A DNA stretch of 53,243 nt, filler included, from Sluysia triapertura (taxonomy: Eukaryota), in NCBI GenBank assembly GCA_046118255.1. It is 4 parts of 4 records of this genome, joined end to end, with 100 filler letters (N's around TTAATTAATTAA, not from the genome) between each part and the next. Parts side by side here need not be neighbours in the genome. Positions count along the whole stretch, not along the records: positions 25,243 to 40,653 come from JBJNIA010229012.1; positions 40,754 to 53,243 come from JBJNIA010104098.1; 2 more parts are not named here. One strand, 5' to 3'. The notes beneath the pieces were generated by a model, which saw only the letters and a list, made by a program, of their open reading frames with translations, was not told where the DNA came from and searched no databases. The position numbers and the translations under genes are program-made. Positions 26,528 through 52,740 of this stretch are shown here, piece by piece (the stretch's first letter is position 1; each line of letters starts with the position of its first letter).

Positions 26528-27650
26528 ATGCCTAAAACAGTATTTTTATTTACATGATTGATGTTTTAACTATTTTATGTAATAGATAAATGTTAGCATA
26601 ACGACAATGGAGTCAGAATTACAGTTTTGTCTTCAGAATAAAACTGTTGCCAGACAATTATTTGAACAGGTTATCAAAACCATTGGTTTACGTGAAAGTT
26701 GGTTTTTTGGTTTATTATATAAAGACAATAATGAAAATTATTGTTGGTTAGATTTAAATAAAAAAGTGAGTAATTTTTTTGGCAATTTTGGAAATGAGGG
26801 ATTTGTAGAACTATAGGTTTATATTCAGTTTATAAATTAAAGTAATAACCATAAATATATGGTGGTTTTTAAATTTAATTGATTATTCATACGTAATTGT
26901 AAAGTTTTCATATTAAATGCATAAAGTTAATGCATGATTATTAAGTGCGTTATTTTTGTGAACACAAAGTTAAAGTTCTTTTATTTGTTACGAGGAAGAA
27001 GAAAATAACTAGAAATTAACTCAAAATCAATTAAAATTACATCTATTAAATTTATACGTTCAGAGTAATGTTAATTATTATTAATTATGCATTATTTAGA
27101 TTGTAAATATAAATGTGGACTTAAAGAAAATAATTCAATTTCAATTTCTGGTGAAATATTATCCAGAAGATGTAACTTCAGAAATAATTCAAGATATTAC
27201 TTTGAAATTTTTTTATTTACAAGTTCGAGAATCGATATTAAGTAGTGAAATATTCTGCCCCGCAGAAACAGCTTTATTACTTGCTTCTTATGCTTGTCAA
27301 GTAAAGTTTGGTGATTATAATCCAGAAATACATAAAGCTGGCTTTCTAAATCAAGAAAGGTTATTACCAACTAGGTTAATTTTGATAATAATTATTCACT
27401 AAACATAAATGATTGATAGAATCAAGAATCAATATAATTGGTCTGCTAATCAGTGGGAAGAAAAAGTCGTAAAGTGGTATTTGGAACACATGGGAATGTT
27501 ACGTGAAGAAGCTATGCTTGAATATTTGAAATTGGCGCAAGACCTAGAAATGTATGGAGTCAGTTATTTTGAAATTTTCAACAAAAAGAAATCAAAGCTT
27601 TTTCTTGGTGTAGATGCATTAGGATTAAGCGTGTATAAATATTCAGATAA
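26528..27650 (+). CDS. Moe: ERM family protein (moesin/ezrin/radixin), exons 1-4 covering FERM N and M lobes (26528-26539, 26586-26765, 27100-27374, 27420-27650); 3' part not found
   Basis: MPKT|[14 protein letters not shown]...[27 protein letters not shown]|..[45 protein letters not shown]..|..[34 protein letters not shown]; GT-AG introns of 46, 334 and 45 nt in frame; MPK start fits ERM rather than merlin. Confidence 0.96.
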
Positions 27651-28779
27651 GTAAGTTATTGATTGTTTTTATTTTTAATCATTTGAATTATCTAAAAATA
27701 TTGAGTTATTTATGTTAATAATAGTAAAGTTGGATCATAACATGCCATTTGTAACTGTATTTGTTGGATTTAATAAATTCTTAAACTTTAATTAATTTTA
27801 GTTTAAAAAAGTAATGAAATTCTAACAAAAGTCTAATCTTTATTTATAATTAACGTTTAAAACTTATTCAAAGATTTAAATTAAACAGTATTTGTCTTTA
27901 TTCACTATGCACGATGCATGATTTTATTAAACATTATTGTCGACTCTGATCGTGAAACTTTGAAATGCTTCACTACATGGTTGATCTTTTGCACTAAAAT
28001 GTTTAGTTATAACTTCTAACGAAATTAGTAAGAAAATCCTTGATTTTAATCTGTAAAATGTCTTTTTGTAATTTTGAAAAACATACTATTCGAAAGAGTT
28101 TATTAATCTGTCAGTGTTTCGGATGATAGAAATAAAGTTGGTTCATGATGAACTAAGTTAACATTAATTTGACCAATGGTTTGAGGCTCATGATATATTC
28201 TTGATGTATTTTCAAAATGATTCAGAGAAATCACGATTTATCAATTATTCGTTAATTTATAATTATAATTATAATTGGGTTATAATTCGTGAAGTTATAG
28301 TTATAATTAAGGTTCATTTTGATAAAGTTTTTGCGTTATTTATATATTTGATATTTTCTTAAAAGTTTTTGAATTTTATAAGTGTCCACTAGAAGTGGTC
28401 TTATATATAATAACGAATCAGATAAAGAAAACAAGGATCCAATGGAAGAAAACACGATAACTCGTAAGCAAACGTCAGAACTCATATCAGAGATGAATCG
28501 TCCAATTCTTAACCAAAACTTAAAAATAGAGAAGTTCGCAGGGGATGGAAAGATACTTTTAGATTTTATAAGTGAATACAACGAAGAAGCAGAGAGAAAA
28601 ATGTATAAAGTTCCCTTCAAACTTAACAGGACATGCGTCCAATGTTAATATTATTATTAATAGACAATACTAATGACACGTTACCATTGGGAAATATTGA
28701 AAATTCAGAAATTCAGAACCCAAATGACAGAGAGGTATTAACTATACCATATGATATTGACGAATTACAAGATGAAGTG

Positions 28780-29095
28780 ATGTTAAGAGAACAGAGAAAT
28801 GATAAAAATATTAAACTCATTATTAACGCTATACAAAGTGCTAACGCGACAGAACGTATTTTCCAAGGCCATGAATTACAAAATAATTTATTAAAATACA
28901 AAGTAAACAATAAGTTGTTAATCGTTACATCCAGCTCGAGGAAAACCGTTATACTAATTCATTACCATCGTGGAGAGTTTGGGGATCATCTTACAGTAGA
29001 TAAAACTTTAAACAGAATTAAGAAAAAATATTATTGTGACAGAATGGATCAAGAAATAAGCAAATGGTACCAAGAATGTAAAATGTGCAATTTTT
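28780..29095 (+). pseudogene. extra integrase-type HHCC zinc-binding domain without catalytic core (element A)
   Basis: EQRNDKNIKLII...LLKYK...ILIHYHRGEFGDHLTVDKTLNRIKKKYY...KWYQECKMC parallels the true IN N-domain at 31910-32215. Confidence 0.8.
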
Positions 29096-29207
29096 GGAAT
29101 ACACCGACAGAATACACAATAGCTAATCAATATAACAACAGTTTTATCAAACAGAATTTCGTCTGGCAGGAAACACATCAATACCCATATGCAGACTGTA
29201 CCAAAAA

Positions 29208-29490
29208 GTAACCATTAACGGAAAAATAATACAAGGATTAATCGATACAGGATCGGATGTAACCATCAGAAGATATAATAGTATACTTGAACATGAAAGA
29301 GTAAATCTAATAGAGGTATTTGACACATTTGAAGGAATAGATAGATCAACTACTATATTTAATCGGTAAGAAATAGAAGTAGATTTACAACAAAAAATAT
29401 TTCGTGTAAAATTAGCAGGAGTACATGACTGCCCCGAAGAATTAATAATAGGTATGGACATTTTAGACAAAATCCCGATGTACTGATAAA
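29208..29490 (+). pseudogene. retropepsin-like aspartic protease 1 (element A)
   Basis: VTINGKIIQGLIDTGSDVT ... VHDCPEELIIGMDILDKI. Confidence 0.88.
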
Positions 29491-30255
29491 TAAAGGTATC
29501 GAGTTAAAAAGCGGATTATACATGCAAAGCGCGAGACTACAAGAAAGTCTATGTATGCTACAACTTAAAGAAAAAAATAGGCACATGTTCCAAGGGAGAG
29601 ATGGATATGTTAAACTAGGAGATCTATCCAAAGAATTGGAGAAAGCCTTAAAAAATCCTAATGATATGGATAAATTAGAAACTATTATAAACACTATTAT
29701 GAATTCTCACGATCCATTACATGAATATCCGCAACTGAAACAAACTAAACAGATCAATGCAAACATGGCCATTAAAACATAAAAAGAAAATTTTTGAACT
29801 ATTTAACAAAATCGGAGATATAGAAAGAGACTACTATCGAGAGAAAACTGAGAGTTAAAATAAGAATAGAAGAAACGAATCAAGTAATAGACAATATACT
29901 AATTTCAAAATTAGTATAACAATATACTCATTACAAAACTATGTGAAATATTATTTAAATACTACTCAACCAGTAGAAATGTATTATAGAGACAGAGTAC
30001 GGATTATATTTAATAGATTATGGATTTCCAATAAATTATTTAAATGAAGAAGATGAAATCTGTGCTGTAATAAGGAAAGATGAAAATAGTAATTCAGATC
30101 CTAACAACACTCAGTGTAATAATGAGATAAACCAAAGATATTTCAACTAGGTGTACAGAGAAATGGAAATAGCGAGTCAAAGACGAGGACTACTATTAAG
30201 GGGAGTAGGAGAATTCTATTACATGATGCAGCAAGAAGATAACTGTACAAATGCA

Positions 30256-30545
30256 TTCCATACAACAGTAGAATTCAATAAGGAAAAATACGAAGCTTTA
30301 TTAGATACTGGTGCAACGCACTCTCTTCAATAGTCGAATCCTGAACAACGATACGATCAATAAAATAGTGCCTCATAATAAAACAGTAACAACTATAGGA
30401 CAAAATCATTTTAGGGAAACTAAAATGTGACATTTCAATCGCAGGTCATATGATACAGTGTACGTCTAGGGTTATAAAACATTGTCCCTACAACATAATA
30501 ATCGGAATGGACATATTGATACAAATTCCAGAAATACTAATAGAA
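30256..30545 (+). pseudogene. retropepsin-like aspartic protease 2 (element A)
   Basis: VEFNKEKYEALLDTGATHS ... VIKHCPYNIIIGMDILIQI. Confidence 0.9.
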
Positions 30546-31199
30546 AAACGAATAGAATTAAGAAATGTGGGAAAAAGAACATTGTTTCATAAAAGAGACA
30601 AATATAGATATTATGAAGCATGTGATCTACGAGAGAGACTAGCAGAAGCTCTCAAAGCTCCAGTGGATGCAAAGGAGTTAGAAACCACAATTAATACCAT
30701 CTTAAACTCAAACGAACCATTGCATGAATATACGCCTCTAAAACACCGACTACTTGATGTAGTTCAATCATGGATGCCTAGTCGAAGAAAAAAGATATAT
30801 CAATTATTACGAGAGATAGGAGACAGAAAGATTTGTATATAAATACAAGCGAATTCGAATAAGAATGAACATAGTGGAAATAGGAATGATATCGAGAATT
30901 TGATATAGGTATGGATATAAGTTTATTGAAAAATGTAGAAGTTAAAGCAAATATACATACAAGTGTAGACGTATTACAGAGATAGATATTTAATAGATCC
31001 TGCATACGTATTAGATTATGGTTACCCAATAGACTACTTAACTGCAGAAGACAAAATAACTGTAGTAATTCCACATGACGAGAATGGAGGACGACATAGA
31101 ACGAATCTATTCGACAATTACATCGAAATATGGAGAGAGGACGAAATACGAAACCAAAGAGGGAATAAATTCCTACAAACAAGAACAAACGGTCATATG

Positions 31200-33110
31200 T
31201 ACCTCTCCAGACCCAAAGAAAATAGAGAAAGTTAAATTATTTCCAACCCCTACTAAACAAGTAGAAGCAAAAGCTTCCCTCGGTTTGGCCAATTACTATA
31301 GAAAATTTATAAAGAACTTCGCAACGATTGCCAGACCATTAACTGAATTAACTATAAAGGACTATAAAGACGTGAGGGAGAAGGGCAAATTAATCAAAAA
31401 TTTTATTTGGAACGATAACCACGAAAAGGCATTTTAATCTCTAAAAACTGCACTTACAACAGCTTCGATTTTACGATTTCCCGATATGGAAAAACCATTC
31501 ATACTCATGACAGATGCGAGTGATTTTGCCATTGGGGAAGTCCTCGGACAAAAAGATAAAAAAGAAAGCGTCATCGCGTACCGAAGTCGTAGATTGAACT
31601 CATGTGAGAATAGAAAAAGAATGTTTGGTAATTATCTACGCACTGAAACAATTTAGGCAATATCTATTGGGTCATAAAATATATTTATACACGGATCATA
31701 AACCCCTAATGTATTTACGGGATATTCGAAACGTAACCGGCAGATTAGCCAGATGGAGTTTAGCATTAGCGGAATATGACATAGAGACAACTTACAGGAA
31801 AGATGCATACAATAAAAATGCTGAATTCATGTCAAGACTCGAAAACGTCAACAAAAAAGGAGATACATGCACAATGGTAGTGAACCTAAGCAATAACGAA
31901 AAATCCATGGCACAAGCGCAAAGAGAGGATCCAGAATTGAAACTTATAATAGATCTTATCATTGATAACGAGATAACCGATGAATTAGCTGCCAAATGGA
32001 ATCTAGAAAATAGTCTACTGAAATACGTAACCAGGGAAGGACTACGAACTGTAGTACCAGAAACACGAAAAGTTGCTTTACTGATTCAATACCACGACGG
32101 TCAATTAAGTGGACATCTATCAGCCGGAAAAACATTAAAAGAGATCGAACAAAAATATTATTGGAAAAGAGAAGACGTTAAAGAATGGTGTAACACTTGT
32201 CATATATGCACATCAAGAAAAAATACAGGGACGAAAACGAAAACACCTTTGCAACCAATGCCAGTACCAACGAGCCCGATGAAGATAACAACAATGGACA
32301 TTCTAGGACCATTACCAACTACATCGAGGGGAAATAAGTATTTTCAGACTATCAAACAAGATGGCCTGAAGCCTTTCCTATGTAGGATCAAAAGGCGGAA
32401 ACAGTAGCACAACTATTTGTTGAAGAAATAGTATATCGTTACGGAGCACCAAAAAAATTACTTACCGATAGAGGAAAGAATTTCGTAAGTGAAACTTTGA
32501 CCGCCGTCACAAAATTCTTTGGAATGATCAGAATATACACTTCGCCGTACCATCCACAAACCGATGGACTAGTAAAACGGTTTAATAAGACATTAGCAAA
32601 CATGTTACAATCTTATGTGAACTCCAAGCAAACAGACTGGGATCTGTGTATAAAACCGTGCTTATTTTCAAACAGAAATGCAGTGTACTCAACCACAAAA
32701 GAAACACACAAACATGCCGATCGATCTGGATTGGTCAGGTTCTCAATCACAATATATGGAAGCCCCAGATTATTTGGCGATACTAAAATCTCGTCTGAAT
32801 GAAGCATGGACAAAAGCTGGTCTAAATATAAAACATAATCAAGAAAAAATGAAAGAATATCACGATAAAAAGGCTAAGCCTCATAATTTCAGAATAGGAG
32901 ACAAGGTCTTAATTTACGATTCTGTAATATCAAAAGGACAGTCACCCAAATTGAATAGACCATTCAAAGGTCCATGCGAGGTCGTAAATACCACTCCTAC
33001 TAACCTAGAAGTAATATCAAATAAAAATTCTAAGAAAACCAAGATTGTACACTCTAAAAGGTGCAAAATATCAGTAAAGGAATCTCTCTATAACCTTCGA
33101 TCTAAAGAAA
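31200..33110 (+). pseudogene. pol: pol remnant: RT thumb/connection, RNase H, integrase with GPF/Y module
   Basis: ORFs 31075-31437, 31604-32407, 32497-32802 and the 5' part of 32678-33733 carry canonical Ty3/gypsy motifs. Confidence 0.95.
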
Positions 33111-34963
33111 AAGGTACAATATGTATGATACAAACTGACAGTGCCAGGCGGAACGCTTATTCTAACAAAAGACAAATCTTCCAAATGTTATTATTACTTC
33201 TCATTCTGAACGCCTTAATTACTGGTACCAATTCATGCAAAACAAGAATAGACGAGAGCCCCGTGAAATTTGAGAGATTCAATAACCAACTTTTAGCTTA
33301 TCTTAAAAATAACGCCTCAAGCGCTTTACTTCACTGTAAACCCTCATGCTATCGTCATTCATGCAAAATTGTTACAACCATAGTATACCTTAACAAGAGG
33401 GACCCATTATTTTCAATTTTATGCGACGGTAAGGACACATGCACATGTTACTGCACAGTAGTAAGGGAATCTTATATATGGATGCTACATTACCCCAACT
33501 ACGAAACAAATACTACTAATAATCTAGCGGTACTAATAATCATTATTCAGTTTAACAATGATAATCCCGCTTCTTTTCCTTTTGTTTCTATTATTAACCC
33601 CTTTTTATTAACACAATTTTTTAAAAAAAACCGACCAAAAAAATCAATTTTTTTATTTAAGAAAATACATATTTTGACCTTAATTTCAATAAATATTAAG
33701 TTATTTTTAATGCCCGGATATATTCGAATCTGAACATTTTAGCGACATAAGTTGCGATGCCGACCGTATATATAAGGGTCTGCATATTTTGTCCGGTTTT
33801 GCATGCCCATGTTAATACGTTAAGGGGTTAATCCTTTTGCTATTCATCCGAAAAGGATGGAAAACCTAGACTTTACAAAAAATCAAAACCCCGTCTTAAA
33901 ATGAAGCAACGACCAATACTTCAATGCCCCCATCATACTCATTTAATCTACCACTTATGAACACCAATTTTATTTTTACTTAGAATCATCGCATGTACTT
34001 ATTCTTAAAATTGGACATCGCATTTAATATATTCCCTTAAATTACACGAAATTTCCATTTATGCCAACCATTATAGTAACCTATCTTTGCGAATCACAAT
34101 TTCCAGAGAGTATTTCAATTTTACGATCGAAAATACACCTAATTCGGAACTGTTAGCCAATTTTAAACAATTACGACCTAATCGGATATATAATGTATCT
34201 ATTACTAACCTTAATCCTGTTTATAGAATGAATCAACCAATAATTCATTACATTAAGTTCTTTCTTAAAACGAACGACTTTCCGCAGGCAGACGAAACGA
34301 TTAAGAGAGTAACCAACTATCTATAGATCAAAACTACATCGGACTCCATAAAGTCATCTTTGTTTATTATACCATTCATTGTCCTCATTAAGTGCCCTAA
34401 TTTGAAGATAAAAGTCGTAGGCGAAAATCATCCTGCCGTATGTAAACAGTTACTGCCCGAAACATACCACAAAATACCTATTTGGATACCAATTTTCATG
34501 GAACAACGATCTAGAAAATTCGAAAATTTTAATCTCCCTACGAAACAGGAGATTATGACATACTGTACTATATGATAACGGACCCCGATGATAATTATCT
34601 ATATTTTGACGGTGCCAAAAATAATTCCGAAACTATAAAACTTTTCACTTACAACTCCTCTCTTAACAATTAACGAATCACAAAATTTAACTAGCTTCCA
34701 AAGCCCGTCAATGAATCTTACAGCAAAGGTAGCCTATCTAAAAGAGGACAATGCATGCACCTATCCGACTAATTTAATGAAGATATTACTGATAGCCGTA
34801 GGCGTGCAACTTTTATGAATTACGATTTCTATGATATTATCTATTTGGCAATGGTCAAAACCTATGACAACTCATAAAAAGCACAATGACAACCCGGCTA
34901 TTAGCAGTCCAATACGCTTAATGACATTAGGAAATCCTAATCTTGATAAATTCTATGTTTATC

Positions 34964-35240
34964 AATTCATGCGCTTACAGACACCGCCGCACCCTATACT
35001 ATGAGACGTTTTGAGTCATTACAAGTACAGGAATTACCCTTTCTCAGGTCAACTGCTGGTCGGTTGATCGATGCTATGGGTCGCGAACTGCCCATAATAG
35101 GCATAATTTCCAATTAGGTCGAAATTCTCGATAGGAAAATAATAACCACTTTTGTAGTCATACGATGATGTCCCACCTCTTGTATTATAGGTCTAGACAC
35201 AATTCGCGCACTAAATAACCTAGTAGTTCATCCTATTACC
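34964..35240 (+). pseudogene. retropepsin-like aspartic protease 3, downstream of integrase (element A)
   Basis: IHALTDTAAPYT...RLIDAMGRELPIIGII..VEILDRKIITTFVVIR*CPTSCIIGLDTIRAL: ALxDT(G>A)A site, flap region and IIGLD motif; not in the supplied ORF track. Confidence 0.75.
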
Positions 35241-35308
35241 GTACTTACTCTTATGTACCCTTTAACCTGTTACCATAACTTATGCCTACAAATACGTTAA
35301 TTCCATCT

Positions 35309-35450
35309 AAGGAAGGCGCATCTGATACACATTTTCTTTTATAATTATAAACGCATGTTATAGTTAGGAATTGTAAACATATGAATATACATTTTTCTTA
35401 ATCACTTACTATAGTTAGGGAATTGTACATATATTGTTGTTTTAACACTC
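35309..35450 (+). promoter_or_regulatory. putative polypurine tract and start of 3' LTR of element A
   Basis: AAGGAAGGCGCA-tc-TGATAC (TG at 35323) soon after the last coding remnant; duplicated TATAGTTAGG(G)AATTGTA motif follows. Confidence 0.45.
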
Positions 35451-35754
35451 GGGTAATAATATTGAATGCAATAATATTGAGGTATGTGTGGTGATACAGC
35501 CTCATAAAGTAAACACTACCCTTACTTTAATCAAAAATCACACAAACTTCATTACAAAAGTCACACTAAAATATTGTAAATTTGTAATCTTTACAATATT
35601 ACACCCTTTCCTAATTAACAAAACATAGACGCATAATAAACTCTAACATTTTTTTAATTGCTGTTTATTGATATAGAAGTAACAATTGTCGCTACGTCAT
35701 CACCACGTCAACATCACTCCTTTACTGTATCCTTTTTATACAGAATTACTGTAA

Positions 35755-36273
35755 ATGCTTCATACATTGTGTAATATTTTATATTCAAGATTTATACAGT
35801 ACTTTCGTAAAGACATTCCAAGCAATTATGTAAACAATTCGGTAACTTCCTATCACACACTAACAGATTACACAGATCTATGCGATGATTTGATCGGTGT
35901 TTACAAAAACAAAGTGTTTGGTAAACTTACAGTATCAGAAATGGTTCATTTTAATGCCAGTAAATTAGTATATTTAAAATATGGTACATTATTTAATGGG
36001 ATATTGTTGAAATCTGTTGAAAATTGTACTATAAATGAATTTTATACAATACCAAATAATACGCCTTCTCAATTTTATTCATATAAGTTCTTTATGCATA
36101 CTCTACCGCCATATCGGTTCAGTAGTCCAACAACCATCTTCAATGATAATCGTCACATATTAACCAGTAACAAACACTGTCATATTGTTTTTCGAAAAGT
36201 TATTTCATCTATGAAACGTAACAATGTATTGCCTATAGATTCAAACTTAAGTTTAGTCCTGATGATATTATAA
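35755..36273 (+). CDS. hypothetical protein (172 aa ORF)
   Basis: Long ORF for this AT content; no family recognised. Confidence 0.3.
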   Translation: MLHTLCNILYSRFIQYFRKDIPSNYVNNSVTSYHTLTDYTDLCDDLIGVYKNKVFGKLTVSEMVHFNASKLVYLKYGTLFNGILLKSVENCTINEFYTIPNNTPSQFYSYKFFMHTLPPYRFSSPTTIFNDNRHILTSNKHCHIVFRKVISSMKRNNVLPIDSNLSLVLMIL

Positions 36274-36449
36274 GTTTTGCTAATATTATCATTTAAAATG
36301 TTCTCGTTTGTGTTTAATTTTTATTATAAATATCTTTAAATATTTTTGGTAACACTTAATTACATTTTAATATGAATACTAGTTTGTTTGAATATTGACA
36401 CACAAAAATTATTAATCCTGTTTCTTTTTATTTTAAATATTTTAAAGAC

Positions 36450-37235
36450 ATGATTGAGCAAAAATTTGAAATTAACATAATCGGTGAGTTTGTGAAATCA
36501 ATGGAATATCAAGTCGAAAATGAAATTAACGATTTTAAAGTACCTGAACATTATAAATTTGGTATCTATTACGGCGAAGGATACGATTACGTGCAACAAT
36601 TAGTCAGTATGAAAGATTTCAAAAATCTAAACCTTGAGTTACCACAACAAATGAACAGTGCCAGTTTTGAAGAATTATGTTGCAATTCGACTCGTTCATT
36701 TCAAATAGAATCATATGTGAGTCAATCTTCACTAGTTTCTGAGAAATCGGTTATTAAAAGTTGTAGATCGAAACAAGATTTGAAGTATCAGCATTGTTGT
36801 TCAAGTTGCGTATGGAGTTTGTGCTTAGTTGGGTACTTGACCGAATATTTAAATTTAAATTTACAGGCGAGGAATCGTAATGACGAATGTCCTGTTAGAC
36901 AGAGACAGGGTTTTAGAAACCAACAAAGTTTAAAAATGGATGATAGAAGTAATTACTGCTCGTTCACTAGTGGACAACAGCTAGAAATTATAAGAGATTC
37001 TAAAATTTCGATTGATGAACTCCCAGTAGAAGTTTACTTACATTTGTTAGACTTATCTACAATTTTATTTAGTGTATTAGTTAGTTATTGTGTATCATCA
37101 ATAACCATGGTTTGTAATAATATAATCAATTCATGTTACTTTTATTATGTTCGCCCACTAAGACAAATATTATGTACCTTTATGTGCCTTAAGCACAAAA
37201 TTATTGATAAAGATTGTACACAACCAAAATTTTAA
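36450..37235 (+). CDS. hypothetical intronless protein (261 aa) with Cys-rich patches and a C-terminal hydrophobic segment
   Basis: ATG-initiated 786-bp ORF flanked by AT-rich DNA, AATAAA downstream near 37273. Confidence 0.55.
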   Translation: MIEQKFEINIIGEFVKSMEYQVENEINDFKVPEHYKFGIYYGEGYDYVQQLVSMKDFKNLNLELPQQMNSASFEELCCNSTRSFQIESYVSQSSLVSEKSVIKSCRSKQDLKYQHCCSSCVWSLCLVGYLTEYLNLNLQARNRNDECPVRQRQGFRNQQSLKMDDRSNYCSFTSGQQLEIIRDSKISIDELPVEVYLHLLDLSTILFSVLVSYCVSSITMVCNNIINSCYFYYVRPLRQILCTFMCLKHKIIDKDCTQPKF

Positions 37236-37832
37236 ATTATTTAAACTTTTTAAGACCTTTCCGATTTTTAATAATAAAAATAGTAAACTGTTAACTACAA
37301 AAATCTTTGTCAATAACGTCACAATTGACAAGTTTGTAACATCAAAACAATTTCAAACCTGACTTACAATTTTAAATTTTAATAAATTGACCTTCATTCA
37401 CCAAATTAAAAAATTTGATGCGTCACAAAACTTTCGCATTGTGATTTTAAATTGCTTTAAAAATGTTGGCAACTACCTCAAATGAATTTTATTCTGGTTT
37501 TAAGTAACTCCTACTTGTACAATTAGATTATATTTATGCTTAGGAATATATACATTTAAATAAATGACATTTACATAAACGTTTAAAAAGTTTGGAGTAT
37601 TATATAAACAAAATTTAGAAATCCTAGTAAGCATTTTGGTTTTAGCAGAAATAAAAAATTAAATTATTAGATTTTAGAAAGTTAAAGTAAAATTATTTAA
37701 ATTTAAGAATTTAATATTTAACCGAAACACTGTTATTTTAATATTCCAGAACAAAATAGTTATTTATGAACCTCGTTTGTATATAAAAACCAAATTTTCT
37801 ATTTATAATTTATAATAAAATTAATACTAAAA

Positions 37833-38375
37833 TTAGAAAAAGTTTCCATCAAAGTTGTTTTGAATTTTAGTATCAACACTATCTTGTAAAGCAAAGTCGG
37901 AAGAATAAAACTGTTGGCAAGATTGATTAGAGTTATTAGATGTAAAATTTTTATTATTTATTCGAGGAAAAGTAAATCTATGACAACATGTCATTACTGC
38001 TCCTTTAGCATGTCTTTTTGAACAAATCCAGTTATCGGATGAAATATTGTTTGAAATATCTTTAGCATCATCTGGATCATATAAATCTGGAAACTCTACA
38101 CAAGGGGGCATCTTTTTTCCATAGCAACAACACGGATGTCTACCACGCCACTTGCAATCGTATTCAATTAATTCATCAATTGTTTTATACCAAAGTTCGT
38201 CATACATTTCAAAATTATTTTCTATTTTTTCTGTAGACAATTTATTCTTTTCTACATGTACATAATTATTTTCTTTCACCGGAGGTACATTAAAGCGTAC
38301 TTGTAAAAATGCCGGCCATGGAATGAAATTCTGAATTGTCAAAAAATAAATGTAAAAATATCTTATCAAAATCAA
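37833..38375 (-). CDS. hypothetical Cys-rich protein, probable terminal exon
   Basis: 180-codon ORF with WRGRHPCCCYGKKMPPC and WICSKRH..MTCCHRF; possible acceptor (attcag) near 38331. Confidence 0.5.
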   Translation of the reverse strand: MILIRYFYIYFLTIQNFIPWPAFLQVRFNVPPVKENNYVHVEKNKLSTEKIENNFEMYDELWYKTIDELIEYDCKWRGRHPCCCYGKKMPPCVEFPDLYDPDDAKDISNNISSDNWICSKRHAKGAVMTCCHRFTFPRINNKNFTSNNSNQSCQQFYSSDFALQDSVDTKIQNNFDGNFF

Positions 38376-38830
38376 TAAGCATAAAAAGTGGATCTAAGAA
38401 GTTCTCATGAAAAGGATTATTTTGTAAGTGAGAAAACTTTTAAATAATACAAGATTGTAAAAAAACTAATTATTTATCTATAAACATCAAATAAAAATAT
38501 TAGTTAAGTGGACAAGAGATAACATGACCAAAAGGCAACTAAGCACACAAATTTATAACGTATTCTCCATTCTATTACAAATTTTCTTTACAAAACATTT
38601 GTTTTTTGTCAACCATATTTTGATAATTATTACTTCATTATAAAATTTTGGTTTTAGTTTTATTTCTTTTCTTTGTATTCTTTGAATTTCTTTTAACGAT
38701 TTTGCTTCTGTTTTTTCATCTCTACCCAAATCTTTCCTTCAACGCATCGTGTGGTCGATTTCTCTTTAATAACCATGTAATCTCTTCTATAAATAAATTT
38801 GTAAACTAATTTTTTGAATTTTACATCAAA

Positions 38831-40376
38831 TGTCAACCCTATCTCAATTAAGAACACTAGCGTACAAATTTTTTCAAATGTTCATGTTAAAAAATAATAT
38901 GAACATCCATTAAGGTAACATTAATAAAGATTTCCAGAAAAATTGTATTTATTACAATTTTTATTTCTTTGACACCTAATAAAGTCTTAATTTAAATTAC
39001 CTAGATGCTTTTTCTCCTTGTATTTCATCAATAAGATCCCATATTTTGTTCATCTTATCAGGAATATTAGCTTGAAAATATTTTTCAAGTTTCTTTGCAT
39101 ACTCATAGGCACCGTATCCTGTCATTACCGCACATTCTACCTCTTCAACAGAATTATCATTTGTTTCTCCTACTAGATCAAATAAGAGATGTTCAAACTC
39201 AAAACATAGAAAATCATCCCATTTAGCATTCACCTCTTTAACATACGCATTTTTCAAAGATTTGGTAAAACAATTAGAGATAGTCGCTTTCGAAATCCAA
39301 ACGAACCTTTTAGCACCATATCTCTTATGTAACATTATTATCTAAATTAAAATTCATTAAAACTTTTTATAATACCTTAGTCAAGAAGTTGAATAAGAGA
39401 TAACGTGTTTCGTAGGAAAAAGAATAATTCGATAATAATAAAATTTTCCGCTCCTCTGCTTTCATTTCGAATCTTTTAACCAATCTTGAAAATTCCAAGA
39501 CTTTGTATTCCAATGGTAATAAACTGGTAGTTTTTCTATATAGAAATCTTTAAAACAACGATGTTTCTCCGATCGACCTGTCACTAAAGGCTTTAACTTT
39601 TCTCCTAACATATTTACTCCCAAGAGTATAGTAAATCGATACTATAGTAAATAGTATAATTTGCCTTATCCTCTTTAGAAATTGCATATGTTCTGTTTAA
39701 TGAACATTTCCAGAATGGTCCGGTTTCGTCACAATTATAAACATTTTTATTTTCATATTCTTTTAACTTTTACATATACAATTCCTTAAAATTAAGAATA
39801 AACCTTTCATCCAGGGTTTTGATTCACCAATAATATCATACGCCTGGAACGAAAATGATTAAACCAACCGTTTGACGCTTTAAAATCATGATTTCATAAG
39901 TGCTGTGCTAATTCTAATGCCTTCTCTTGCAATATATCACTACTGATACTGATATTTTTTGTTCTCTGAATCTGGAACCATTCATACAGGATGGCATCAA
40001 TTTGTGTTTTTCTTTACTGTTTGGTATTCAAGTTTGACTTCAAAATGGAGTTTCTAGATTTCATAAGATTATTTATATTGTATTTTGATGAAAGGAAGCA
40101 TTGAGAACAACCTTTATCTTCAGAAAATAATTTTAACAATTCTGCTTCTCTTCGATGCTTAAATCCTTTCTCTTTCGTTTTGGATTTGTATTTTTCATGT
40201 TCATAAAAGGCAGTTAAAATGAATATTTAAACAAAAAATTGGAGAAATTATTAATTTATTTTGCACTAATTATTATTCATTGTTCAAAATAAACAGTGTT
40301 TACATTATTAAACTCAATTTTCCATGAAAACCAAATGTTCATATTAAACTTTGTTCATATTGAAAAGGGTTGACTG
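38831..40376 (-). mobile_element. decayed pogo/Tigger DNA transposon with both terminal inverted repeats
   Basis: TA-CAGTCAACCCTTTTCAATATGAACA at the 40376 end and degenerate GTCAACCCTATCTCAATTAAGAACA at 38832; minus strand encodes CENP-B HTH (LYEWFQIQR..ILQEKALELA..FKASNGWF) and DDE_1 motifs (RFTILLGVNMLGEKLKPLVTGRS..RCFK..LPVYY; NTLSLIQLLD*GIIK; WISKATISNCF). Confidence 0.9.
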
Positions 40377-40653
40377 TATTTCATTTACCTTTGCTCAGTG
40401 TTGACTGATTCTTCCAATATCATTGAATACAATTCTGTTGTTAAACTTTCACTTTTGGACTTGTACCTTTCATAAATAAACAATAGAGGAAGAAGACAGA
40501 CAAATTACTAATTAATAACTCCAATTTAATTCATTATATATTCCGATGCCGTTATTATTATATTGATTTTAATACCTCATATATAGAGATTTGTCAATTA
40601 TCTTATTTATCAAATTTATAATTAAATACCTTTCTCATAAATTCTTTTCAATT

Positions 40654-40753
40654 NNNNNNNNNNNNNNNNNNNNNNNNNNNNNNNNNNNNNNNNNNNNTTA
40701 ATTAATTAANNNNNNNNNNNNNNNNNNNNNNNNNNNNNNNNNNNNNNNNNNNN
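40654..40753. other. artificial contig spacer
   Basis: N44-TTAATTAATTAA-N44. Confidence 0.97.
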
Positions 40754-41204
40754 TAGGATCATTATAAATGTTTTCTTTATCATGATTCTTATTTCAACAA
40801 TGTTTATAATGTTTAATCCATCACTTGTACTAGTTTTTCCCTCATTTTATGATTTTACATATGTTCATTCATCTCCAGATCCTCAGTTGGGCAATCCCAA
40901 CACTATCAATTTTCTATGGCACTTTAGGTCTGTACCCCAACATATGTCACCAAATTCAATTATGTTTGACCTCAAACATCTTATATCATTTACTTCAACA
41001 TCAGAAGGGTATTCGATATGTGGGCTCACCCGGAACCTCTAGCTACCAGCAGGTAATGAATGAATAATTTGGCATAAATTATGAAATGAAAGTATAAAAC
41101 TTGAAGACAGAAGAATTTTTTAAGCGAGATTTAGTATTTAGAAGAATAAAAAGAAGATTTTATTTAAAAAAGAATTCCCGACAAAAATTTGAATTTAAAT
41201 TCCA

Positions 41205-41772
41205 TGTCAAAGTAATTAATTTTTTGATAAGTTTTAATCGTTTAACTCTATAAGGAAACGTAAAATCGACTCCAAATCATTTTTATTTTTATGCAACACC
41301 TTAATATGGGTTGTGAAACATATTCCTATAATCTTGTGAAACGGCCAACGGAGGTTGAGGTCGTTGCTTAAATTATTATTCATATTATAACTTTCTTTTT
41401 AATAATTTTTGTAAGAATTAATTTTTGTCGTTAATATACTTTAGGAATATTAGAGTCTTTTAATTTAATAAACTTATAAAATTCGTTTTGTTAATCAACA
41501 CCTTAATACGGATTGTGTAATTATAAAATCTGTAATTTTAATTAAACAACACCTCGTAAAGGGTTGTATTATAAATTAATTAAAAAAGAGTCACAAGAGA
41601 TTAATCATTTTTATATAAGTCATAAGTAAAGAAGTTTTTCTAAAGTTAATTAAGTTAAGTTATAAAAAATCCTAATAGTACGTCTAATAGAGTTATAAAT
41701 CGTATATATTAGGCGAACCGACTCTTTAGATATTTTGTAAGTAAGATTAAGTTTTTAATGGAAACACTTTCA
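41205..41772 (+). repeat. putative 5' LTR of element B (5' boundary uncertain)
   Basis: Ends in CA at 41771-41772, five bases before the PBS; shares sequence blocks with 25250-25300 and the reverse complement of ~11375-11425; TG at 41205 is only a candidate start. Confidence 0.5.
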
Positions 41773-41777
41773 AAATT

Positions 41778-41795
41778 TGGCACCCGAATTGGAAC
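41778..41795 (+). promoter_or_regulatory. primer-binding site, tRNA-Lys-like
   Basis: TGGCACCCGAATTGGAAC matches the tRNA-Lys(UUU) PBS TGGCGCCCGAACAGGGAC at 14/18 positions and precedes a T-rich leader and gag. Confidence 0.75.
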
Positions 41796-42104
41796 CACTT
41801 GAAGTATATTAAAGTTTATATATTAAGTTTTGATTTCATATTGAAGTTAAGTTATTGATTAAAGTTAAATTTAAGCTTTTGATTTAAGTTACTGTTGAAT
41901 TTAATTAAAGTTTAAAGTTTATTGATTTTGTTTTCGATAAGTTATATTTGTTTAATTGATTAAGTTTTTACGTTTATTGATATTGTTAAGTTGTTGATAA
42001 TTTGAACACATTAAGTTTATTAAGCATTAAGTTTTTGATAAATTACGATTAAGTTAAATAAGTTTCGATTATCTGATTTGATTTTTTACGTTTACATTTG
42101 ATTT

Positions 42105-43510
42105 TTGAATCTTACGTTAAGAATAGATAAAAATAATAACCCTATGAAGAAATATAAGAGAACTTTAAGAAGCAACTCACTTGAGAGATTTACAATGACA
42201 GTACCATTTGAAGAATTTAAAGATTGTATGACTCAACTGACCCAGAATGTTAAGCCAATAGTAATACTTCCAGAAATGCGCGAGTTTAGTGGCGCCGAGG
42301 AAGATCTTTGTGATTTTTTATTTGAATTCGATAGCCTAGCTGAAGCTAATGGCTGGTCACCGATAGATAAGGTTAAGAGAATACAACATTATTTAACTGG
42401 TGTTCGATACAAACATATAAGGAGATAAAAGATGAACATAAGGAAGATTGGAATACAATAGAAGACCTAAGAAAATACTACGCGAGAATGCTTAATATAA
42501 GGGTACCGAAACCGCACGAAACAGTTTGTGAATTTGCCTACGCTTTTAGAAGTTTAGCATCCAGAGCCAGGATTGCAGATAACCGAAAAGAAATAGTATT
42601 AATAGATAAGTTTATATAGATTTAATTGAGGAAATCCCATTCAAAGACACAGCTAAGAAATGAAGAAGTATTGAACGTACTAAAAATGAAACCAGAAAAA
42701 AATATAAGTTACACAGATGATAGCAAGAATACAAGAAATAATTATAAACATAAATATGAGAATTCCTTTGACGATAATAATTATAATGAACCCCCTAAGT
42801 ATGAGAATTCCTTTGAAGACAGTAACTTTAATAGTAATAACAGTAGTGTTAATGGGAATAGAGATAACAGTATCAATAACTTTCGAGGTAACAAAAGAAG
42901 AAATTCAAATAATTTTAGAAATAATCCGGTAACAAATTACACTAATGTTGGTAGAAGTAATAGAGGATTTGAGAAGAGACAAATAAATGATATGGGTTCA
43001 AGAGAGTATGAACAACGTCCACTGCCAAGATGGCCCAGTAAACAAGCGAATAATACTAATAATAATTCAGTAAGAGACAAAAGTCCTGCACAATCAAACT
43101 ATAATAACAATTATGAAACTAGAACAAATATAGAAGGTGATATAGTATGTCACAGTTGTGGTAGACATGGGCACTATGCTCGAAATTGTAATAAGTTAAG
43201 GTCAAATACTTTTAAGCAATTTTTAAATAAAATGTCGAACTCTAGACAGGCCTCACCAAGGAGAGTAAAATTCGACATGAGTAGGAATGACGGACAAATA
43301 AATTGCAATTATAATGAGGAGTATGAAGATTACAGATATGAAAGACATCCAAGAACACTGACAAATGAAGAGGAAGAGATGTTAAGAGAATTTTGTATAG
43401 AAAAAATGGACAATAATGAAATTGAGGAAGAAAAGAACAACCCAGGAGTAGGCATGATGAAGAAGAGGATATGTTTATTAATTATTTACATAATTACTTT
43501 ATGGAGTTAG
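42105..43510 (+). pseudogene. gag: gag of element B
   Basis: Capsid-like REFSGAEEDLCDFLFEFDSLAEANGWS..YLTG; KPHETVCEFAYAFRSLA; Asn-rich linker; zinc knuckle CHSCGRHGHYARNC. Confidence 0.92.
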
Positions 43511-45036
43511 TAAAAGAAAAGAAAAAGGAATATAAGAAGAGTAAAGAGATGGAAGAGCAGCAAAAATCAAAAATAATTAAAAGTGCTCAGCAAATTGAAG
43601 AAGAAAAAAAATATGCCGAAGTAATTTTAAGTAGATGGATGAAGCATAGCGGTATAACAGAAGAGGACGAAGACAGATATCGATAGTGTATTAAACATAG
43701 AAGAAGAAATAATTAGCTTATACGATCAAGAAGAAGAACTGGATGACATACTCTCAGATACTGAGCCAATGATTATTTTAGGTAATGAAGAAGATATACC
43801 AACCGAGGAAAATAGCACACAGAAAACAACATTTAGTGGTTTATCTAAAGAGGTAGAAATATTTCTTTCAGATTTATCAGAAGCTAAAAATATGGATACA
43901 AATTTAAATATACTTTTAAAAATAAATTTAGATATGTTTAATAGACAAAATATTAGGTCATGTTTACTTTACTTAAGTCAGGCAGATAGCACACATAGCT
44001 TTAAGGCAAGGATTGGTATGTTTATTTATGGAATTACCTGTTACTATAGTAGTAAAAGATGCATTTGACATGCTTAAACTATTTCTTTAAATTATATTTC
44101 TTTAATAGATATTTAGAACCCAGAGAATATTTAATAAATTACGGTTACCCGTTGGGTGATCATGACGAAATGATAAAGGCAGAAATAGTACAAGAAAATT
44201 CAAATAATGTTGAAAACGAAACAAATAAAAATGATAATGAATCCCCACATACGTTACCAAGACAATTAATGGAGGATGATGATAAACATGTAGTTGACAT
44301 TGATGCTGAAGCAGAAAATAATGAGTTAGTTGATATCGATGCCGAAGAAGGAAAAGATGAGCCCCCCGATTATATAGTAAACCTTAATAAAAACACATAT
44401 ATAAACCGTCGACAAGGAAACAAATACAATAAAAAGAAGACCTGGGCGTCCACGAAGAGACGAAAATGATATAATAACTGCACCTGTTGTTAAGAATACT
44501 ATTAATTTATCAAAAATAAACTGTGAAAATGATGATGAAATTGAATTAGATAGTAAAGGAATAATTTTTGCATTTTTGTCCGAAAAGTTTACTAATTTTA
44601 CTAAATATAAGAAGTTATTGGCGGAAATCAACAAAGAGTATAAAGTTTCTATAAATAAATTAATAAGAAAGTTTGAAGAAAGATATAAGGATAAAGACAT
44701 TAGTGATTTTATAGAAAACGAGCAATAAAAGGTGGCAATAATTAAGTTAATTAATAAAGGATTGGATGAGGAAAAGTTGAAAATAATCTTAACGTACGTT
44801 AGATACCAATGCAACCAAGAAAGAATGGTTACAAAAATAAAATAGATAAGGTTATAGATTTTGTAATTAAGAAAACTAAATTATGGATTGAAAATCAAGT
44901 AGGTTGGCGCAATATAATAAAAGGGAAAAAGAATCAAAAAACGGAAGAGCCGACAAATATAATGGCACAATTATTCGACAATAACGGTAACATATTAAAT
45001 AGGACAATACCAAGGATAGGTAATTTGACAAATAAT

Positions 45037-46851
45037 ATGCTGTTTATCGTAATACCATTAACAATGTTCGGCATAAATAGAACTAATGCAATAAAGACAT
45101 TTGACTGTAGCCGGATACAAATGGGCAGAAAATTTTCATTATTCGACACAGAAGATTGTCCTGAATCAAGGCCAAATAGAATACGGTAAAAGATATTAAA
45201 ATAATGAGTGTTTACTAAGAAGGTAATCTAATAACGACTCTAATATGTAAAACGATCAGTGGCAGTCTGGTATTGCGGTCACCATATCCATTCATTAATA
45301 ATAGAATTATCTAATGTACTTAAACATAAACAATGTAGAGATGCATTTGAGACCGGCTATATAAGTCTAACAAAGGGAGACACATTGAAAATGGGAAATA
45401 ATGAAAAGATAATTTATAATATAAGAACTGCCGGAAATGTACTAATAGATGTGACATGTGAACAAGGAACAATATAATATGAAGGAAAAAAGAAACATAC
45501 GTAGTTAGTTTGAAATCTTTTAACGAGAGTTTTGATATGGAAAAAGGTACAGTGATCAAACCAGTTGCGACACTGGAGAATCAATACTAATTTAAGAATT
45601 GGACAAAATTCAATGTCCACTAATATTCCTTAAACAAATAAAATTTAATGTAATATCAGGATTCATGTATCAAGATAAAGACAAATACCCATTAGAAGAA
45701 ATAAATAAAAATACGGACCACATACAAAGAAAAAGACTAGATGAGGTCGAAACACCGACAATACTAATGACCAGTAGAGAAGAAGATGGTTTAATTTTTA
45801 TTTCAAAAAGGAACAATAATCTGCTGTGGAAAAGAAATAACAGAAACTAACTACTAAGGAATTTATCTCTCAGAGAAAATAATTCAAATAGCTAAGAAAG
45901 GCGTTGATACAAAAAAAACATAAAAGTAAATGCCTATATTAACAATAAAATCGATTTCTATTGCCATTTAGGATTGATTTCAAATTATGGTTATTCGGGA
46001 GTGTCAATTAAACAAAGAAATTTTGCACACAAAATTGTCACTAGCTATTACAAATACAGATTTTAGTCGCACTATTACTTCCATTAAAAGAAGGAATTTT
46101 CGGTCGACTAATGGGAAAGGTATTGTACACGTACAAATGTAAAAAGGTAGAAGTGCAATTAAAGTCAACTACCGAATGCACAATTGAATTACCTATATTA
46201 TACGGTAAAACAGAAGCATACCTTGACCAGTAACCAGAGTAATATTTCCAAATAATAAAGTCAAACCAAAATCAAATGTCATGGCACTGGAATATAGAAT
46301 TGATGATAATTTATGGATATCCTTACCACATAGAAGCCAGGTAAAAACTCCAGAAATAATAAGACTAACCGAATTAAAAGAAAAACTGAAATTTTTGGCT
46401 AGAAAAAATATACAAAATTCTGGCATTTATACGAATGACGATATTCAAGCAGCCTGGCGGGTGATACTATTCCCAATAAAGAGGTCAAAAGTTTTTGTAG
46501 ATAAAGCAACAATTAAAAAGAATGAACAAATAAATTTCGAATTACTATTGGAACCCGATCACTTTAAAAGAGCTGCACAAGATACACTGAAACAGATCTG
46601 TGGAATTAATATTAGGACAAGCATTTTCTGGATTAATAGGAATATATATATATATGTATATGATTAAGGTAATAGCGTTGATAATTTCTCAAGCCTTTTC
46701 AGTAGTCGGAATTTATAAAATCTCAGGATTTTTGTGGAAATTGATAATTGGATGTTTTCCATTCCTGGCAAAATACCTCTTGCACCACCATGCAAATGCT
46801 CAAATAAATGGATTAAGAAAAGAAAGACAATACACAGAAGATAACAATTAA
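45037..46851 (+). pseudogene. env: chuvirus/Jingchuvirales-like (class III-type) envelope glycoprotein of element B
   Basis: Signal peptide MLFIVIPLTMFGINRTNA then IKTFDCS..FSLFDTEDCP, WYCGHH, CRDAFETG, TCEQG, GIFGRLMGKVLYTYKCKKVEVQL...ECTIELPILYG, PVTRVI, SGIYT..D..VILFP and a C-terminal TM region; this motif order is what I recognise from chuvirus-type G proteins. Confidence 0.85.
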
Positions 46852-46994: not shown

Positions 46995-47310
46995 ATGATA
47001 TGCGCTAATAACAATTATAATGGTTCAAAGAGACCAATAGTAAATGCTAGAATAGTAAACGGTAGAGTAGTAACAGCACTAATTGATATAGGAGCACTAG
47101 CCTCCTTAATCAACGAAAATTTCTTACATAAAGATGAATTAAAAAATTTAGCTAATCATACCTCTCATCTATCAGGGGTTACAGGCGATGCAATTAATAT
47201 AACTGGAGTAATGAAAGCTATATGCGAATTAGGACAAAATAGATTAGAAATTAAATTAAGAGTTATGAAAAATGTCCAGAAGAAATGATAATGGGAATGG
47301 CATATTGTCT
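46995..47310 (+). pseudogene. aspartic protease of element B
   Basis: RPIVNARIVNGRVVTALIDIGALASLINE...LSGVTGDAINITG...(frameshift) MIMGM. Confidence 0.88.
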
Positions 47311-47729
47311 CAATTAAAAGGAGTAAAATTAATGGATAGTCAATCAAAAAGAACTATTGATGATGATGACGTATAGGTATATGAACAAATCTGGTTAGTA
47401 AAAAGAAGTGAATATATAATGCCGGTCAAGACAAACAGTTTATTAACCGGAAATATCATGTTTATTGCACCAGATGTTAGATATAGGAATAGCTAGTGTA
47501 GTGTGGGAAAATACGTTAGGATTATAAACTACAGAGACAAAATTAGAAAAAAAGTTAAATATACAATACCATTTCGGAAAATAAAAGTAAAAATAAGATA
47601 AAAAGTAACATGAAATTACAACATGAGATACAAGACGAAAATTACGGTGAAATAGAAATTAATAATAACAGATATATTAATTATAAAGTGTCATTTACCG
47701 ATATCCAGGAGCAATAGCGAGAAATTGTA

Positions 47730-48260
47730 ATAATAAAACACGAGATACCGCTAATATTAGATAAAGTAATCCGAAAAAAGCCATACAGAATACCAATACG
47801 TATTCAAGAGCAAATAGATACCATGAAAAAAGCCGGAGTGATAAGACCAAGCTTCTCACCTTTCATCTTCAGTTTTATTAGTTAAGAAAAAAGATGGTAC
47901 AATGAGATTTTGTATAGATTTTAGAGAATTAAACAAGATAAGAAAAGACGTATTTCCTTTACCACGAATAGATGAAATGTTGGACAAATTAGGAAACGCC
48001 ACATATTTTACAACCATTGATCTACAAAGCGGTTATTGGCAAATCGAAATCGCTGAGAAAAATAAACATAAAACCGCATTCACTTGTGGCGATGAACTAT
48101 ATGAATGTGAAAAAATGCCATTCGGATTAACCTGCAACTTTCCAAAGGTGCATGAATTTCGTATACATAATAATATTTTCTAAAGATTTCGAATCACATT
48201 TAAAAGAATTAATTACAATATCTTGATATAATCATTTAAAGTTTAAACCAGAAAATTGGT
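47730..48260 (+). pseudogene. pol: reverse transcriptase (N-terminal half) of element B
   Basis: [76 protein letters not shown]; YxDD region damaged. Confidence 0.95.
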
Positions 48261-52094: not shown

Positions 52095-52479
52095 CTAAAT
52101 TTAATATTTAAAATAAATCAGCATTATTTTCCAGTTAATTTGGTTGTAGATATTATACGAAGAGAATTTTATATGCATCCTTCAATTTAACATTTTAATA
52201 AAATGCAAATTTATTTTGCTATCAATTTGAAAATAGAAAATAAATTAAAAGTATTTATGATTTAAAATGCATTTCTATTCTGCAGATAAACGATAAATAA
52301 GATTTTTCACAATGAATAATCCAGATTTCCAATGTCATTTTTGAAATATCTATGTATCACTCTATGTTTATTGGCCTATCGAAGTTGAGTCCATCAGGTT
52401 ACGATGTACGGAAGATACTCAAACATGCAATATTTAGAAACTCCAGAATATGTAACGATAATGAGGGAAAATTTACAGG

Positions 52480-52740
52480 ATGCACGGATTGCAGGCTTAA
52501 AAATGAAATATTCTCAAAAGATGCTCATGATAAAAAGACGAAAGAACACAAATTTCAAGTTGACGATAACGTATTGGTAGATTATCCACTATCAAAACCA
52601 GGTCCATGAGAAGTCAAAATCCTACCAATCTATTTATAATGGATCCTAACAAAATCGATGCTGAAACATTTGTGGTACATGTTAATAAATATAAAACGGC
52701 ACCTAAATAGGAATATAACTTATGAAATATAAAAGTTGAG
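52480..52740 (+). mobile_element. isolated Ty3/gypsy integrase C-terminal fragment
   Basis: KDAHDKKTKEHKFQVDDNVLV..PGP*EV...TFVVHVNKYK...EYNL parallels KEYHDKKAKPHNFRIGDKVLI..GPCEV..IVHSKRCK..YNLR in element A. Confidence 0.7.

Follow-up and report, generated by a model that had tools for sequence, protein, structure and literature searches.

An apparently lineage-restricted accessory domain, possibly ubiquitin-like in part, in two decayed retroelements of Sluysia triapertura

Two decayed retroelements, A and B, in a stretch of 53,243 nucleotides (the window) from Sluysia triapertura (GenBank assembly GCA_046118255.1) carry three diverged copies of a protein domain, X. The window is AT-rich eukaryotic DNA (GC 18–38%) in four pieces joined by N-linkers; A and B sit in different pieces, and their proximity in the window therefore carries no meaning. 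Judged from its sequence, X is a real coding domain and apparently a lineage-restricted accessory domain of decayed retroelements, and every copy in the window is a dead relic. In the explanation that we favour, X would belong, as an accessory module, to a Ty3/gypsy lineage of planarian (Burro-like) type and would be made up of a four-helix bundle, then a diverged ubiquitin/SUMO-like beta-grasp domain and then a short tail, with a role in the host's ubiquitin/SUMO system. We infer the Burro membership, the beta-grasp fold and the function, and we give this explanation as a whole an even chance of being right.

Element A consists, in order, of a weak gag fragment, a lone integrase zinc-binding (H2C2) domain, protease PR1, X1, protease PR2, X2, a reverse transcriptase (RT) thumb, RNase H, integrase and a 3-kb broken accessory region. 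The two X copies and the proteases that precede them lie as follows:

29178–29486, + strand: PR1, a retroviral-type aspartic protease (DTG), directly 5' of X1 (Pfam RVP, E = 0.0022)
29561–30240, + strand: X1, with a four-helix N part (~29600–29830), an alpha/beta C part (~29836–30072) and a tail towards PR2
30259–30530, + strand: PR2 (DTG), between X1 and X2 (gag-asp_proteas, E = 0.011)
30555–31233, + strand: X2, laid out like X1 and ending at the junction with the RT thumb

X1 is disrupted by stops and by frameshifts near 29750, 29830, 29890 and 30000, and the reading frame of X2 is broken near 30822, 30890 and 30971. The sequence blocks by which an earlier reading of the window (the initial annotation) had defined X are present on the + strand: the N-block of X1 at 29615–29728, its MYYRDR word at 29979 and, in another frame, IDYGFPINYL at 30013–30042, the core of the X2 N-block at 30624–30665 and the X2 C-block at 30972–31040. 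Single-frame pieces of X1 and X2 score 128 (N piece) and 109 (C piece) against each other, values reached by none of 2000 shuffles in either case. When the full-length translations were read through, with a residue X placed at each frame break, the two copies were colinear over ~220 residues (score 297, z 46, 0/3000 shuffles). The extent first given to the domain was too short, as the homology runs on to ~30240 and ~31230 (tail score 35, reached by 1/2000 shuffles).

Over 122 codons, X1 and X2 are identical at 0.61, 0.75 and 0.44 of first, second and third codon positions respectively, and they use different codons at 35 of 61 identical residues. This pattern argues that the pair is not a duplication made after insertion; the duplication is old, and X1 and X2 both remained under protein-level selection as they drifted apart. 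In A, the adjacent proteases show the same pattern of codon-level divergence, as does the pair of integrase zinc fingers, and PR1 and PR2 match each other with a score of 80 (0/2000 shuffles). Protease plus X is repeated as a ~1-kb unit, both halves of which diverged under selection.

The third copy lies in element B, where the order is gag, acidic linker, X3, acidic repeat, helical region, env, protease (PR3) and RT. The initial annotation was right about the placement of X: in element A it comes after each of PR1 and PR2, and in element B it separates gag (with its zf-CCHC) from env.

43841–44190, + strand: X3, a shorter, more distant copy, with a marginal N-block (43841–43927, core 43841–43876) and a significant C motif (C-block, 44092–44154)

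The frame of X3 is broken near 44025 and 44080. Its C motif scores 67 against X1 and against X2 (0/2000 shuffles), and reaches 14.8 bits with a profile of X1 and X2, the best unrelated window among 1063 sequences searched having 6.6 bits. The X3 score was reached by 0/120 Markov decoys of 53 kb, the frameshift-aware score of 64.5 exceeded the maximum of 51.5 among 167 decoys of that length (0/167), and hhalign gave the motif an E of 5.6e-6 over 27 columns. The N-block is less secure: 3 to 15 of 2000 shuffles equal its score of 37–39, it ranks first among 6405 non-self windows narrowly (76 vs 69), and it has 1.6 bits with a hidden Markov model (HMM). The score of the 400 nt preceding the motif was equalled by 2/1000 Markov decoys and by 2/87 real element windows. 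Helices 3–4 are undetectable in X3 (161/1000 decoys as good) and its middle stretch is at chance level (466/1000 decoys as good); the distance from N-block to C-block is 257 nt, vs 357 and 345 nt in X1 and X2, and X3 is 30 codons shorter. Of the three diverged copies originally proposed, two are therefore strongly related, and the third joins them through its 27-residue motif and the marginal N-block. On this narrow base X3 is homologous, if weakly, to X1 and X2.

It could be argued that X3 is non-homologous, or that the short motif arose by convergence, X then being a single-lineage insert of A. The chance-level middle, the 1.6-bit N-block, the missing 30 codons and the failure of the proteases to place A and B together speak for this. 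We nevertheless think it very improbable, because no decoy in either set reaches the X3 score, because of the hhalign result, and because the window's best N-block match lies just upstream of the motif and in the right order.

Whether X ties A and B into one clade, as had been proposed, is another matter. The shared X favours it, on the basis of that one motif and the marginal block; against this, PR1 and PR2 score 66 and 60 against PR3, no higher than the best outside scores (96, 64 and 91). No common domain set is available for a tree, since the RT core is missing from A, and RNase H and the integrase core from B. Compared with the integrase tail of A, the one at 52.4 kb reaches 104, and 38 outside proteins give it no more than 60; the similarity ranks of the B RT and the A integrase over these 38 proteins correlate (rho 0.51); on the other side, an outside protein reaches 116 with the A integrase tail, and the ranks of the B RT correlate with those of the A RNase H at only 0.07. 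A further point is that one lineage can acquire accessory domains from another. From these comparisons, the notion of one clade is only partly supported.

Relatives of X were not found in Pfam, PHROGs, NCBIfam or PDB sequences (matches to antibody complementarity-determining region 3 were chance), nor did any paper on the domain appear among the listed results of literature searches. A phmmer search of 1.84 billion representative proteins gave nothing at E 0.001, and a word search among proteins of 399–2000 residues gave 0/1832 candidates, each with a broken query that contained ~50 out-of-frame residues; a relative as remote as X3 (15 bits) could not have surfaced in the larger search. The X profile is absent from 38/38 related gypsy polyproteins (best E 0.65), and the B env was sought among proteins of 989–3149 residues (0/136); the Burro polyproteins, of ~4,900 residues, fall outside the size ranges of the word, polyprotein and env searches. 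An assignment of the N half of X3 to Peptidase_U32 (best Atlas value 0.80) was discarded for low recognition. The empty protein search and the gypsy polyproteins support the initial annotation in calling X lineage-specific, as it apparently is. Its statement that no known Gag/Pol domain was recognised in X fits the libraries searched, but the position of X in B matches that of the Ubi/SUMO-like domain reported in Burro (PMC6431247). Published Burro domain maps or supplements may already describe X, and the chances that 'unnamed' is wrong are about even.

Structure predictions divide X into two halves. A single-frame model of X2 has four helices at residues 14–89 with a predicted local distance difference test score (pLDDT) of ~60–75 (mean of the model, 50.6). 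The fold matches of this helical part are generic, with a best Z of 7.6 in a wide search, and the TFIIS N-terminal (LW) domain (Z 6.7, root-mean-square deviation (rmsd) 4.9 over 84 residues) and the Rev1 C-terminal domain (Z 6.2, rmsd 1.8–1.9 over 56–62) stand below that best generic row. The C half has alternating strands and one helix, in a strand-strand-helix-strand-strand-strand pattern that by eye has the layout of ubiquitin. X had been called likely helical; this holds for the N half, but the C half, the one that links B to A, is alpha/beta. The motif shared by all three copies has the spacing of the stretch of ubiquitin that runs from strand 3 through strand 4 to LxDY. A single-sequence model of the X1 C part places strands at the expected sites (best pLDDT 62.9, the other four models 39–45), and Foldseek with this model returned beta-grasp proteins in 5 of 21 weak rows, namely a ubiquitin variant and four domains of the beta-grasp PB1 type. 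From context and pattern, and not from statistics, the C part may be a strongly diverged ubiquitin-like domain, a proposition that we regard as evenly balanced.

A series of results weighs against that proposition. The X1 C-part model lacks one strand; its beta-grasp rows have E values of 5–10 and, on realignment, Z 2.6–3.6 and rmsd 2.7–4.0 over 61–67 aligned residues, ranking 12–16 of 16; and none of these proteins appears among the 50 best matches of the wide fold search with this model. Fold searches gave no E < 0.001 in PDB (both models) or in a viral library (second model), and the wide searches gave generic helical matches only, with Z up to 7.6 and 6.7, though absences there exclude nothing. 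In sequence comparisons, an HMM built from 116 ubiquitin units was equalled on X by 631–1763 of 3000 shuffles, pairwise comparison gave z below 1, and a frameshift-aware ubiquitin profile was equalled by 808, 102 and 191 of 1000 decoys. Profile-profile comparison with hhalign picked, unprompted, the gapless 21-column register of the shared motif, with a score matched by 21/60 shuffles. Pfam ubiquitin (PF00240) and Rad60-SLD (PF11976) matched no X piece, the queries being broken. The reference units were 116 of 132 motif-bearing units from public genomes (short, duplicate and X-containing units were dropped, as were two that did not match; three were confirmed as PF00240), and a profile selected on the motif itself is narrow and blind to remote ubiquitin-like domains. 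Another reading, in which the X3 N-block would be the first ubiquitin strand, found neither confirmation nor disproof, and the register of the initial annotation scored marginally. X2 has a GG pair (31086–31091) after its last predicted strand, and since X1 and X3 do not, X probably did not act as a conjugated modifier.

As a separate observation, many bacterial and archaeal records from across phyla (loci L001–L121) encode a near-canonical ubiquitin domain that directly succeeds what resembles the end of a signal peptide and precedes an extension unrelated to it; where short contigs carry polyubiquitin in tandem, eukaryotic contamination is the likely source.

X might instead be a domain that is truly unnamed and has a fold of its own, serving as an adaptor restricted to this retroelement lineage and of obscure origin; the ubiquitin-like spacing would then be coincidental. 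The lack of relatives among the 1.84 billion proteins, in the word search and in Pfam, PHROGs, NCBIfam and PDB would follow directly, as would the uniformly negative ubiquitin tests and the generic matches (best Z 7.6) of the helical part. These absences are less telling than they look, given the broken queries, the invisibility of X3-like distances in the large search, the Burro-sized proteins beyond the size ranges and the narrow ubiquitin profile, and a domain already on record would suit the position in B. We consider this alternative rather unlikely.

The case for a Burro-like module with a ubiquitin/SUMO-like part draws on the surroundings of X3, which comprise:

42102–43507, + strand: gag with a CCHC knuckle (zf-CCHC, E = 6.5e-4; Retrotrans_gag, E = 0.21)
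44291–44361, + strand: two 36-nt repeats just 3' of X3 with acidic VVDID/LVDID words that resemble SUMO-interacting motifs
44528–44930, + strand: helical region ending in a BCL2 homology 2 (BH2)-like word, WIENQVGW (44884), BCL2-like by eye only
45034–46848, + strand: broken env, a class III (Monjiviricetes-type) fusion glycoprotein (PF24664, five colinear pieces, best E = 1.6e-10)
47031–48180, + strand: PR3 and partial RT (RVP, E = 4e-4; RVT_1, E = 4e-13)
52410–52590, + strand: integrase C-terminal fragment, perhaps of B (104 against the A integrase tail; best 60 among the 38 outside polyproteins)

The acidic words are a single duplication, and their pattern, picked post hoc, is weak. WIENQVGW is the sole BH2-like word in six frames of the window, and the region between X3 and env is a possible BCL2-like domain. 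A 51-nt pair at 25251–25301 and 41694–41743 (82% identical) is probably long terminal repeat sequence, since the second copy precedes a word like a primer-binding site, TGGCACCCGAA, near 41780, upstream of the B gag. In addition, a decayed stretch at 47290–47760 (+), between the B protease and RT, lies in the slot of the Burro dUTPase-like domain and has no Pfam match.

By the order of its open reading frames (ORFs), gag, class III env, protease and RT, B is a Ty3/gypsy Gag-Env-Pol errantivirus. This order with class III env is known from Nematoda, Bryozoa and Platyhelminthes (PMC13524379). In the env table of that paper, four of five chosen words of the B env (CGHH, EEDG, ETNY and GIYLS) occur in Schmidtea rows only (5/5 occurrences), the words having been picked after the likeness was noticed by eye and with no alignment score behind them. 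By this measure the B env is closest to those of Schmidtea errantiviruses. Burro (GYPSM1), as described in PMC6431247, is a giant planarian Ty3/gypsy element with an ORF of 4,873 residues (14.6 kb) in which a Ubi2/SUMO-like domain precedes BCL-2, env lies between BCL2 and protease, and a dUTPase-like domain lies between protease and RT; its accessory domains share a theme of apoptosis and ubiquitination. The inhibitor of apoptosis (IAP) region of Burro1 is reported, second-hand in PMC13465017, to protect planarian stem cells. The Schmidtea errantiviruses are probably the Burro family, to which B may belong. Further points stand on the other side: 44528–44930 has no Bcl-2 match in Pfam or PDB, so its likeness is unconfirmed; Pfam detected no MATH, BIR or ankyrin domain on the scanned ORFs of B, a decayed copy in which loss is possible; the gag-env spacer is only ~1.5 kb and gag to RT only ~6 kb; and class III env is not seen in A, where X follows proteases.

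That X follows a protease in A raises the further idea that it is a decayed dUTPase-like domain, a kind often found between protease and RT in gypsy elements. Its LIDYGF/VLDYGY word resembles dUTPase motif III, but by eye the motif spacing misfits, four helices make up half of X where a dUTPase has a beta fold, Pfam gives no dUTPase match, and X3 precedes env instead of following a protease. The corresponding position of the dUTPase-like domain in Burro (PMC6431247) is a point in its favour, and we regard it as extremely improbable.

The remaining features of element A are:

28771–29088, + strand: extra integrase zinc-binding domain (H2C2) without an integrase core, 5' of PR1 (PF17921, E = 1.7e-11)
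31210–32960, + strand: pol remnant with RT thumb only, RNase H and integrase (Pfam RT_RNaseH, E = 3e-17; H2C2, E = 5e-15; rve, E = 1.6e-5); RT core absent
33116–36340, + strand: broken 3' accessory region starting in frame with integrase, with a signal-peptide-like start, a Cys-rich stretch, a protease and a hydrophobic end

The extra zinc finger is identical to the H2C2 at 31898 in 38 of 104 residues (37%), and the two diverged under selection; this core-less finger suggests that A is a mosaic or once had a duplicated domain. The accessory region has no Pfam or PDB match, its features being assigned by eye apart from a further aspartic protease, PR4 (DTA, ~34950–35220), which scores 60 and 57 against PR1 and PR2 (0/2000 shuffles). 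Element A carries three related proteases. As its RT core is gone, A has been rearranged, and it can be read in three ways: as an old protease-X tandem within one element, as a mosaic pieced together from two relatives, or as an element in which X lay on the gag side before a large deletion took env, protease and the RT core, so that X would share its slot with the copy in B.

An old tandem invites comparison with Ddi1, which unites these three kinds of domain (PMC5028754): protease, helical bundle and ubiquitin-like part would form a reordered Ddi1 analogue, an accessory protease brought to ubiquitinated or proteasome-bound host proteins. The repeated ~1-kb unit with both halves selected, and the three related proteases of A, would suit this. 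The order differs, however (ubiquitin-like domain, helical domain and protease in Ddi1; protease, helical part and C part in A), X3 has no adjacent protease, and nothing X-like follows PR3 or PR4. PF09668 is below cut-off, PR1 (E = 0.0048) doing no better than the pol protease of B (E = 0.0024); the Ddi1 helical domain is absent among the fold matches listed, and A may be a two-element mosaic. We think such an analogue improbable. Equally doubtful is its wider form, in which the lineage built and duplicated a Ddi1-like tool for host ubiquitin/proteasome substrates and not for its own polyprotein, X being a cassette that moved between the gag-env region and other sites.

Returning to the Burro-like module, X would be translated as a piece of the element polyprotein and would serve as a non-catalytic interaction unit, a decoy or adaptor, in host ubiquitin/SUMO traffic; by analogy, binding to the ubiquitin/SUMO machinery would be its most likely function. 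In B it might act beside its BCL2-like neighbour, as proposed for Burro accessory domains. X would then add a helical plus ubiquitin-like module, duplicated together with a protease, to the host-directed toolkit of Burro-type elements, and would give a marker for a retroelement lineage. If X is the known Ubi/SUMO-like domain of Burro, the gain is one of annotation only; if the fold is new or the pairing with protease functional, X offers an instance, amenable to experiment, in which host proteostasis is steered by a transposon. That the copies are dead limits their direct use.

The host is an animal, as indicated by exons of an ezrin/radixin/moesin gene at 26586–27651 (Pfam FERM_M, E = 4e-14; ezrin, E = 2e-33). 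Element A starts ~0.8 kb downstream of a splice donor and probably lies within an intron of this gene. Elsewhere in the window there are:

17562–17882, + strand: TMEM220-like host exon (E = 4e-5)
36399–37232, + strand, and 37833–38393, - strand: two open frames rich in Cys, of 278 and 186 codons, with no Pfam match
~38900–40200, - strand: decayed pogo/Tigger-type transposase (HTH_Tnp_Tc5, E = 1e-16)
14241–14339 with 21305–21405 (81%), and 16402–16611 with 22369–22600 (73%): dispersed repeats in inverted pairs

By eye the first of these repeat pairs resembles tRNA-derived sequence, yet no tRNA gene was called anywhere in the window.

Burro is among the closest known systems, a likeness judged from published descriptions (PMC6431247). 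B shares with it a gag with a CCHC knuckle, an accessory region and a mononegavirus-like env between gag and pol, and X3 with the BH2-like word occupies the slot of the Ubi2/SUMO-like and BCL-2 domains before env. B is far more compact, with gag to RT in ~6 kb, vs an ORF of 14.6 kb, and with one knuckle; the helical N part of X and the protease-X tandem of A are not described for Burro in the section consulted. In ORF order and env words B also resembles Smed_errantivirus_1-6 of Platyhelminthes C1a (PMC13524379), which, unlike B, are intact, multi-copy and 14.5–18 kb long, and whose accessory domains are unannotated in the passages available; from their length, these are presumably Burro elements. 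With the ubiquitin and Rad60-SUMO-like families (PF00240, PF11976) X has in common the strand/helix pattern by eye, the LxDY-type spacing and the GG of X2; it differs in having no significant sequence similarity to them and in its attached four-helix part and tail. The building blocks that adjoin in A are like those of the Ddi1 family (PMC5028754), in a different order, with no homology detected and within a retroelement. Finally, CERV of the Caenorhabditis elegans element Cer1 (PMC10309623) is likewise a lineage-specific gypsy accessory protein without outside homologues, but it combines an M domain rich in Cys with a G-protein-like one, and by eye X shows neither pattern.

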